Assembly: GCF_030384885.1 (NCBI RefSeq)
Contig: NZ_CP128613.1
Direction: 5' to 3' (one strand)
Source: Escherichia coli
Lineage (GTDB): Bacteria > Pseudomonadota > Gammaproteobacteria > Enterobacterales > Enterobacteriaceae
DNA length: 64,000 bases
A program made the position numbers and the translations under genes. Below are positions 27,020 to 28,456 of the stretch, piece by piece. Position 1 is the stretch's first letter. Every line of letters begins with the position of its first letter. Below the pieces are notes generated by a model. It was given only the letters and a program-made list of their open reading frames with translations, made no database searches and was not told where the DNA came from.

Positions 27020-28456
27020 ATGTTAGTTAGTAAAAGCAACGAAATTAACACTAGCACATTTATAAATAGTGGAAATTGTAATGAAAGAAAATCTTCTAAA
27101 TCCATGGAGTTACTAGCTTATAGTATTATAAAATTAATTTGTAAAGAAGCTGCCTCAGGGACGTATAACGGTGCTCTTGAAATTTTACAAAAAATGATGT
27201 CTGAATGTAAATATCATGAAGGCAATGCTTTTGTCATTATGGGAGCCGGAGAACAATTAAAACGTATTAAATATGATGCTAATGAAAATAAATTAAAAGT
27301 ATACAACGTACACTTTGATAATAATCAAGAGTTAGTTGCTGATGGTGAGCCTGACGTCGTATGTTTAAAAAAAACGGTGTGGGAAGACCTTCTCGTTAAA
27401 CTAAAGCTGGAGAACAAAGAAAATGCGGTTTCTGAAATTAACCTGTCATCTAATAAAAATAATGTTGATCAGTTTATTGAATGCGCTAAGAGAAATGAAC
27501 AGACCCTATTCGACAATATAAGAAAAAGTGATTTTCATGTTGCTTCACTTCAGCCAGGTAGAACGCGTAGTGTTATTTCAGAAACGCCGCCAAATGACTG
27601 TATGGAATCACATAATTTATATGAAAACCACACAGATAAGGTTGCAACTGTAACTAAAAATTCTCAGCAAGTTAAAGGTCACTATGGAGATAAGTTGAAA
27701 GAAATGCAGTTGTTCCTCAACCAGATGAGCAATGCACTTCAACAGGATTCATCTTTGTTAGAGTCAAAGGAACACACCATAGATATTCAAGAAAAAACGA
27801 ATAAGTTTGTGCAGCATTTTCAGCGGGTATTATTTGATAAAAATGGAAGGTCATCAGAGTTTCTACTTAATTTTTATGAGTGTTGCTATAAGTTTTTACC
27901 AAGAGCGCAGCCTCAAGATAAAATCGATAGCTATAATTCAGCACTGCAAGCTTTTTCCATATTTTGTTCATCTACGTTGACACATAATAATGTAGGGTTT
28001 AATTTCAAATTATTTCCAGAAGTCAAGCTGTCTGGAGGAGATCTTGAAACGGTATTCAAATACAAAAATGGCAATTTTGTCTGGGAGATAGCCAGAATTA
28101 AAATTACTCTCCCAAAAGAAGAGGGGGGGGTATATAATTTAGGTGGATTGGACTTTAAGGGGTGCTTCTTTTCTGGACAGAACTTCAGTAACTATGATAT
28201 TAAATATGTGAACTGGGGGACGTCATTGTTTGATGTTGATACTCCGTGTATTTTTAATACGCCTGCTAACAATGAGAGTTATGAAAAATCATTAAAGCCT
28301 GTGAGCGAAAACGGTTTAAATGGAGTCTTATCTGATCGTAATAAAAAAATAAAAATGATCACGGGCGTGTCACCATTCGATGGTATTTCATCTATGGATG
28401 ATGACTTTGATGATAGTTCCTCTGAGGATGAGCCCGTTGAGAATAGTCTGTTGTGA
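27020..28456 (+). CDS. Hypothetical protein, 478 aa, AT-rich, acidic C-terminal tail (possibly ypjC-like)
   Basis: Long uninterrupted ORF in a low-GC region; no family recognisable by eye; contains an internal G8 tract. Confidence 0.6.
   Translation: MLVSKSNEINTSTFINSGNCNERKSSKSMELLAYSIIKLICKEAASGTYNGALEILQKMMSECKYHEGNAFVIMGAGEQLKRIKYDANENKLKVYNVHFDNNQELVADGEPDVVCLKKTVWEDLLVKLKLENKENAVSEINLSSNKNNVDQFIECAKRNEQTLFDNIRKSDFHVASLQPGRTRSVISETPPNDCMESHNLYENHTDKVATVTKNSQQVKGHYGDKLKEMQLFLNQMSNALQQDSSLLESKEHTIDIQEKTNKFVQHFQRVLFDKNGRSSEFLLNFYECCYKFLPRAQPQDKIDSYNSALQAFSIFCSSTLTHNNVGFNFKLFPEVKLSGGDLETVFKYKNGNFVWEIARIKITLPKEEGGVYNLGGLDFKGCFFSGQNFSNYDIKYVNWGTSLFDVDTPCIFNTPANNESYEKSLKPVSENGLNGVLSDRNKKIKMITGVSPFDGISSMDDDFDDSSSEDEPVENSLL

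Follow-up and report, generated by a model that had tools for sequence, protein, structure and literature searches.

In one lineage of Escherichia, the gene ypjCB carries a run of eight G within its coding sequence whose length differs among closely related isolates; public assemblies still contain its ancestral, intermediate, derived and slipped forms. The copy described here lies on the plus strand, at positions 27020 to 28456, of a 64,000-nucleotide stretch of E. coli DNA (NCBI RefSeq assembly GCF_030384885.1, contig NZ_CP128613.1), hereafter the window, where it forms an open reading frame (ORF) of 478 aa. Sequence comparison identifies the gene, traces the origin of the tract and reveals its length polymorphism. 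The G-run is young, private to one lineage and not ancestral to the gene. We favour, with reservations, the reading that the tract is a hotspot of incidental slippage in an accessory gene under weak constraint, a case of incipient pseudogenisation; an evolved phase-variation switch it probably is not. Frameshifting at homopolymers is itself a known phenomenon. What is new is a coding homopolymer of Escherichia that was born by successive substitutions at its edge and became at once a frameshift hotspot, a small natural case of how contingency-like loci or pseudogenes arise.

27020..28456, plus strand: ypjCB coding sequence, 478-aa allele (ORF list and translation; NCBIfam NF050179, 945 bits; relatives annotated ypjCB in RefSeq).
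28123..28131, plus strand: G8 run and the next T (state G8T1), slippage-prone tract in codons 368 to 371 (sequence; allele comparison).
28447..28449, plus strand: site of a 1-bp deletion, CC>C, with early stop (alignments to intact alleles).
27367..27374, plus strand: A8 run in ypjCB, internal homopolymer control (A7 in 1 and A9 in 3 contigs, all from Logan).

The G-run within the reading frame

The initial annotation described an intact, AT-rich 478-aa ORF, and this description holds: the frame runs from an ATG to a TGA (stop included in the coordinates), and its GC content is 34.7% against 47.6% for the window, within a low-GC tract of about 23.2 to 31 kb that encloses it. One G8 run lies inside the frame, as had been noticed, ten bases upstream of where it had been placed, at 28123 to 28130 instead of 28133 to 28140. 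The run, GGGGGGGG, falls in the codons GAG GGG GGG GTA of residues E368 to V371; nowhere else in the window is G or C repeated eight times or more. The second-longest G/C homopolymer of the window is a G7 run at 63311 to 63317. In shuffles at the composition of this ORF, eight or more consecutive G had P=0.003, and 66% of mononucleotide shuffles of the 64 kb held at least one G or C run of that length. The presence of the run alone is thus unremarkable; its origin and behaviour are what is notable.

A change of length was predicted to shift the frame of the C-terminal part of the protein. Computed translations bear this out, since the loss of one G (G7) brings a stop after 373 aa and the gain of one (G9) a stop after 372 aa. 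The frameshifted states remove the conserved C-terminal 105 aa or so, the last quarter of the protein.

Origin of the run by edge substitutions

At the position of the tract, ten alleles of other lineages have GAG GGT GGT TTA (GGGTGGTTT) or close variants, and none has a run. The closest intact allele comes from strain EC42405, and within the tract exactly three changes set it apart from the window, T>G at 28126, 28129 and 28130. Of 5426 complete E. coli genomes, a single one, that of strain 2013C-4282, has the G8 form of a 168-bp segment that spans the tract, the next best match having three mismatches and no gaps. Over 27 kb, 2013C-4282 and the window are 99.956% identical, with 12 mismatches and no gaps.

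Tract states were also looked up by exact protein sequence in a collection of 15 billion proteins, and the DNA of the matches was then read. This revealed an intermediate, G7T2 (GGGGGGGTT, GAG GGG GGG TTA, encoding E-G-G-L), which specifies the same 478-aa protein with L371 and is present in at least 335 contigs; it occurs in none of the 5426 complete genomes. In ten G7T2 copies that were read, everything else in the gene, together with 300 nt upstream of it, is identical to 2013C-4282. One G7T2 contig is named Escherichia sp. TW10509, a cryptic clade I strain (PMC10132054).

The run was thus built in two steps. In the lineage that includes TW10509 and 2013C-4282, GGGTGGTTT became G7T2 by two synonymous T>G changes, and a further T>G at the 3' edge of the run turned G7T2 into G8T1 (GGGGGGGGT, L371V), the state of the window. 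Each of the three changes turns a base adjoining a G run into G. Conversion of a base next to a run into the run base is the signature of transient-misalignment ('dislocation') mutagenesis, and we infer that the stepwise extension reflects such mutagenesis at the edge of the run. An alternative in which the clustered T>G changes are a GGT>GGG-type Illumina artefact was rejected: the complete genome of 2013C-4282 shares the G8 despite 12 single-nucleotide polymorphisms (SNPs) in 27 kb, and the G7T2 intermediate is found in hundreds of assemblies.

The window allele carries a further change near its end. A 1-bp deletion (CC>C after 28447) swaps the last eight residues of the 484-aa form for LL, so that the protein ends in ...ENSLL where the longer form has ...ENSPVV.SPLV; only these eight residues are affected. 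The near-identical copy in 2013C-4282 is flagged 'frameshifted' by the Prokaryotic Genome Annotation Pipeline (PGAP) because of this deletion. It is common to every sequence of the tract lineage that aligns across the site, and the G7T2 allele has the same 478-aa frame; judged from these alignments, the deletion would therefore have been in place before the tract was built. For annotators, 'frameshifted' or 'truncated' calls for ypjCB in this lineage reflect a real tract polymorphism together with a fixed C-terminal deletion.

Length polymorphism among isolates

The initial annotation had proposed a comparison of tract length across isolates. This comparison showed that length differs within the tract-bearing lineage, in which seven states were found.

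G7T2: in frame, 478 aa (L371); at least 335 contigs, with 525 blocks listed in the index.
G8T1 (window): in frame, 478 aa (V371); 46 plus 6 contigs, with 96 blocks for the main variant.
G6T2: shifted, 373 aa; 3 samples (NCBI 5-Mb contig, ENA metagenome scaffold, Logan assembly).
G8T2: shifted, 372 aa; 21 contigs, drawn from several projects in NCBI, ENA and Logan.
G9T2: shifted, 374 aa; a single contig, seen in 7 samples.
G7T1: shifted, 373 aa; 3 Logan contigs.
G9T1: shifted, 372 aa; 1 Logan contig.

A frameshifted tract is present in roughly 5-7% of the assemblies of the lineage. In-frame variants of plus or minus three were not found by exact-sequence look-up. G7T1 is present on both alleles of a SNP at 27644, and G6T2 occurs on two flanking haplotypes, with and without 25679A, a variant otherwise seen in a G8T1 genome. 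On the evidence of these backgrounds, at least some of the length changes thus appear to be independent and recurrent. The G8T2 group has no distinguishing SNP and may stem from a single event; the flanking SNPs are too few for a tree.

The A8 run of the same gene provides an internal control. Its A7 and A9 variants, which cut the protein at 126-127 aa, belong to the same lineage, and one comes from an old run (SRR024141). These contigs stem either from real slippage or from sequencing error. Variants were found in 4 of about 106 contigs at G8T1 and in 4 of about 650 at A8, a frequency about six times higher at the G-run and only modestly above the control.

Identity, range and constraint of ypjCB

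We searched family databases with the 478-aa protein. Over residues 1-476 it matches the NCBIfam 'YpjCB family' model NF050179 (model positions 1-457 of 465) with 945.1 bits, the cutoff being 650, and the unannotated family PHROG 30093 also matches. The Pfam domains DUF5507 and DUF5508 are both present in one polypeptide, in N- to C-terminal order.

27020..27499, plus strand: N-terminal module, Pfam DUF5507, aa 1-160 (E=1.5e-77); corresponds to the K-12 'ypjC' fragment.
27719..28447, plus strand: C-terminal module, Pfam DUF5508, aa 234-476 (E=5.8e-137); corresponds to the K-12 'ypjB' fragment.

Membership of the YpjCB family is not in doubt despite the altered C-terminus. The window protein matches the family over its whole length and occupies the same ileY-ypjA slot; it differs from it in the private L371V, the G8 run and a length of 478 instead of 484 aa. 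The K-12 copy, which had been suspected to be disrupted, is indeed a pseudogene, with a stop at codon 161 and a deletion of about 35 residues. This stop and deletion have led to the listing of two fragments, ypjC and ypjB (b2650/b2649). In complete genomes that match, the annotation is ypjCB or 'DUF5507 domain-containing protein'. The gene is thus already catalogued by name, and the ORF itself is no discovery.

The initial annotation recognised no family for this ORF and called it an orphan. The first part gives way to the family matches above and the second stands. When 1.84 billion protein representatives were searched with phmmer, its filters switched off, no credible relative came up outside Escherichia/Shigella: the search returned one full-length cluster, its fragments and one weak outside match, and the source names of the family members are all E. 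coli, Shigella or 'Escherichia sp.'. In evolutionary terms ypjCB is thus a genus-restricted orphan, yet one that has a family name.

Of the 5426 complete E. coli genomes, 3067 match ypjCB DNA, in every case on the chromosome, and 43% lack the gene. Full-length homologues are common, mostly of 484 aa and otherwise of 449, 479 or 491-492 aa. Neither an invariant tract nor a lack of full-length homologues, which would have spoken for a mere pseudogene remnant, was found: tract length varies, and 484-aa homologues exist in most lineages. The window protein is 78-95% identical to other E. coli alleles. Divergence among alleles is unusually high: protein identity falls to 76%, synonymous divergence (dS) reaches 0.21 and the ratio of nonsynonymous to synonymous divergence (dN/dS) is 0.5-0.8. 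The ORF has been retained across 11% nucleotide divergence between intact alleles. When the 165 substitutions that separate two intact alleles were scattered randomly, the ORF stayed open in 0.08% of cases (P=0.0008). Inactivation has occurred independently several times, by the stop and deletion of K-12, other internal stops, an IS5 insertion and an 11-bp deletion. The gene looks dispensable and under weak or episodic selection. As a fast-evolving gene confined to Escherichia/Shigella whose frame is kept, it is a reasonable target for structure determination and knockout.

Incidental hotspot or evolved switch

Once seven to eight bases long, the run would slip during replication and produce heritable -1, +1 and +2 variants. 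These would stop translation at 372-374 aa and add one more route to the pseudogenisation of ypjCB. We infer that slippage is the mechanism and that the polymorphism has no adaptive value. The reading as an incidental hotspot is favoured because the tract is young and restricted to one lineage, lies on freely varying residues (residues 368-371 differ across alleles, as in EEGGL, EEGSL, EEDGL and GEGDL) and is short, and because the gene is often broken elsewhere.

Phase variation at poly-G or poly-C by slipped-strand mispairing is known from contingency loci of Campylobacter, Helicobacter, Neisseria and Haemophilus. Like these, ypjCB has an intragenic G run in which a change of plus or minus one shifts the frame, its length is polymorphic among close isolates and the changes appear to recur. 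Unlike them, ypjCB has a run of only 7-8 nt, which is short for efficient switching, in one small lineage and with no conservation of the tract; it has no recognisable surface or restriction-modification role, and its variation is known here from comparison between isolates. To our knowledge, phase variation by mononucleotide repeats is very rare in E. coli. The neuO gene of prophage CUS-3, a capsule O-acetylation gene, varies in phase by heptanucleotide repeats and is one of the few such on/off cases in E. coli. It resembles ypjCB in that repeat number changes within a coding region, and differs in having a 7-nt unit in a prophage gene, as opposed to a mononucleotide run in a chromosomal island gene.

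Several observations weigh against an incidental hotspot. The outcome of the neutral simulation indicates that the frame is or was under selection, and it fits a functional switch equally with decay. In-frame states prevail, with about 390-630 contigs against about 30-35 that are frameshifted. G8T1 could be a frame-restored derivative of G8T2 (+G, then -T) and not the product of a substitution, which would imply selection for re-activation. The look-ups covered two backgrounds only and relied on exact protein identity; the counts are lower bounds, variation elsewhere in the protein is excluded by design, and the comparison with flanking variation is biased by this mode of retrieval. Single Logan contigs, finally, are indistinguishable from sequencing errors, and the A8 control also gives four variant contigs. 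The main alternative is a genuine contingency locus, in which selection built or kept the poly-G for reversible on/off switching of full-length YpjCB by slipped-strand mispairing. We consider it unlikely: the tract is missing from all other alleles compared, ordinary mutations lose or break the gene in many lineages, G7-G8 is short for an efficient switch, and low-level length variation is likewise known from the A8 run of ypjCB. The evidence, moreover, consists of assemblies from different isolates, and the protein carries no signal of surface exposure (no signal peptide; maximum 19-residue hydropathy 0.87). What speaks for a contingency locus is that the three changes go in the same direction, two of them synonymous and the third the conservative L371V, such that the protein was kept while the run was built. 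Seven tract states coexist in one tight lineage, the same state recurs on different haplotypes, and the in-frame state prevails in an ORF maintained over long divergence; the possible descent of G8T1 from G8T2 by frame restoration points the same way. The mixed-biofilm phenotype of a K-12 ypjC deletion (PMC3646849) also suggests that the gene may matter in competition.

The gene may instead have been dead in this lineage already, inactivated by the C-terminal 1-bp deletion, so that the variants of the G-run are neutral decay. The PGAP call of a frameshifted pseudogene in 2013C-4282, the high dN/dS, the frequent inactivation elsewhere and the very low AlphaFold confidence (pLDDT 34 and 52, see below) are in line with this. 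The deletion, however, touches only the last eight residues of a variable tail (family members end at 449, 479, 484 or 492 aa), and the 478-aa form is unchanged in at least 390 contigs. The ORF has stayed open to an extent that is improbable under neutrality, as computed above, and the start codon and a Shine-Dalgarno-like motif are intact, with a promoter-like site that matches the K-12 ypjC promoter. We therefore hold prior death of the gene to be quite improbable. A bolder scenario, in which YpjCB is functional in competition or host interaction and its expression in a cryptic-clade-I lineage has newly come under mononucleotide phase variation, with intermediates (GGGTGGTTT > G7TT > G8T) and ON/OFF states still segregating, is if anything more doubtful still. 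Least credible of all, and in our judgement very unlikely, is that the length variants are homopolymer sequencing or assembly errors in a stable tract whose G8 is a fixed private cluster of substitutions. G7T1 and G9T1, the direct neighbours of the window state, are indeed known only from Logan auto-assemblies, and some of these single-contig variants could be sequencing noise. The four A8 variant contigs are likewise Logan-only, with one from the old run mentioned above, one G6T2 case is a 5-Mb contig that is probably long-read, and the window and 2013C-4282, the two complete-quality sequences available, both have G8. Error is not plausible for G8T2, G9T2 and G6T2, because these states recur across sources and projects. 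Three independent sources and a number of projects contributed the 21 G8T2 contigs (LRKC/LRLE, JAAP*, an ENA metagenome, SRR/ERR runs), and G7T2 and G8T2 both occur within one of these (JAAP*). The G9T2 contig is the same in its seven samples, NCBI, ENA and Logan data all contain G6T2, and the variant frequency at G8T1 exceeds that at A8 about sixfold.

Features of the protein and leads to its function

The predicted layout of YpjCB comprises a polar N-terminus rich in Ser, Thr and Asn, which make up 12 of its leading 25 residues, modules of helical and beta-rich character, and an acidic tail. The tail had been pointed out before, and its last 30 aa contain 10 D/E and no K/R. In the 478-aa protein, neither a signal peptide nor a membrane or hydrophobic segment was detected. 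Models computed with AlphaFold2 reached a predicted local distance difference test (pLDDT) score of 34 for the whole protein, from 11 sequences, and of 52 for residues 296-445, from 15 sequences, the latter with no beta-helix. Confidence is low because the alignment is too shallow, all relatives being at least 76% identical.

Searches of PDB sequences with the family profile and with the C-terminal segment gave nothing significant, the matches to antibody heavy-chain variable (VH) domains and Qnr having E>=0.025. A PADLOC search with the window protein returned no match. A literature search found no paper mentioning DUF5507, DUF5508 or YpjCB, and the mentions of ypjC and ypjB are in screens and gene lists. 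In one such study, deletion of ypjC allowed pathogenic E. coli to colonise a commensal biofilm better, and constitutive expression had no effect (PMC3646849). ypjB is listed among predicted membrane-protein genes (PMC7414163).

Two structural resemblances were considered and are unsupported leads. Residues 376-405 can be divided into six units of five residues, each centred on F, I or W (GLDFK GCFFS GQNFS NYDIK YVNWG TSLFD), reminiscent of pentapeptide-repeat proteins (PF00805; Qnr/MfpA; effectors such as PipB2), and Qnr is among the weak PDB matches of YpjCB (E=0.17). There is no Pfam match at E<=1 and no beta-helix in the model of residues 296-445, and the Qnr match is not significant, antibody VH domains scoring better by chance-level margins. 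Residues 333-382 align with the Ig-like tandem repeats (about 71 aa, ending in GC) of P0154, a giant protein of cell-surface type, and share G.Y...G.D..GC with them. The summed phmmer E-value is 1.4e-7, and P0154 is the sole significant outside protein among the 1.84e9 representatives; hhalign (P=0.064, probability 0.9%) does not support homology.

Residues 365-402 (LPKEEGGVYNLGGLDFKGCFFSGQNFSNYDIKYVN) can be aligned, residue by residue, to the N-terminal part of antibody VH domains, in the pattern E..GG.V...GG....C..SG..FS.Y....V (E 0.025-1). This alignment is probably due to chance; it is consistent with a beta-sandwich-like strand pattern. We also considered the protein as a T3SS (type III secretion system) effector. 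The Ser/Thr/Asn-rich N-terminus and the lack of a Sec signal are compatible with this but non-specific, and no T3SS genes are adjacent to ypjCB.

Upstream signals and neighbouring genes

The region upstream of ypjCB contains the following features.

27008..27013, plus strand: Shine-Dalgarno-like GAGGAA, 6 nt ahead of the ATG (sequence).
26524..26552, plus strand: sigma-70-like site TTATCA-N17-TTTAAT upstream of ypjCB (pattern search).
26188..26263, plus strand: tRNA with anticodon CAU (ileY-type tRNA-Ile2), island boundary (ARAGORN; Rfam tRNA, 67 bits; 74/76 identity to K-12 ileY; tRNA-Ile in RefSeq).

In K-12, a constitutive RpoD (sigma-70) promoter, TTATCA-18-TTTAAT, and H-NS binding have been reported between ileY and ypjC (PMC3946193). 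The sigma-70-like site of the window is nearly identical to this promoter. By extrapolation from K-12, ypjCB is probably silenced by H-NS in this lineage. Promoter and terminator scans gave background levels only, and an Rfam scan around the locus found the tRNA only.

The initial annotation placed the gene beside a tRNA-Ile. An ileY-type tRNA does lie upstream, at a distance of 756 nt from the ORF, and ARAGORN labels it Met from its CAU anticodon, whereas RefSeq relatives annotate tRNA-Ile. Its two differences from the K-12 gene are apparently in the anticodon stem, where one seemingly changes a G-U pair to G-C and the other a G-C pair to A-C.

The local gene order is the same in K-12 and 2013C-4282: a ygaQ-like amylase gene, ileY, ypjCB, a resolvase remnant (pinH') and ypjA/ehaD. 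In the window, ypjCB accordingly lies between the tRNA and the pinH-like resolvase/invertase remnant, of 55 aa (28796-28963, plus strand), which is followed by the autotransporter ORF ypjA/ehaD, of 1551 aa (29324-33979, plus strand). The latter has a TTG start in the mechanical ORF list and is annotated slightly shorter in RefSeq relatives.

Beyond ypjA, a P2-like integrated element occupies 34347-47375, between ypjA and ssrA (tmRNA gene, 48498-48860). It encodes an integrase, CI and CII regulators, a Dam-type methyltransferase and a GpA replication protein. Its cargo comprises ThyX (34347-35114, minus strand), a dCTP-deaminase-like protein (35117-35902, minus strand) and a 778-aa AAA_13 ATPase (45039-47375, plus strand), and looks like anti-phage defence. 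The genome of 2013C-4282 matches the window up to 34162 and has another island at this spot, CP4-57-like and with the toxin-antitoxin genes CbtA/CbeA.

On the other side of the tRNA, the ygaQ-like ORF of the alpha-amylase family (750 aa, 23374-25626, minus strand) is intact, and in K-12 an internal stop makes the corresponding copy a pseudogene. The ygaQ-like gene is not called in two genomes of the lineage (L048 and L050), both of which have C>A at 24843, a change that may be nonsense. Two further genomes, L049 and L052, share an identical ypjCB allele (G7T2) and island and differ at about 150 sites across gabP-gabT-gabD-lhgO-glaH (17020-23210). This divergence ends abruptly at about 23.0-23.2 kb, where recombination seems to have left a breakpoint on the border of the AT-rich island.

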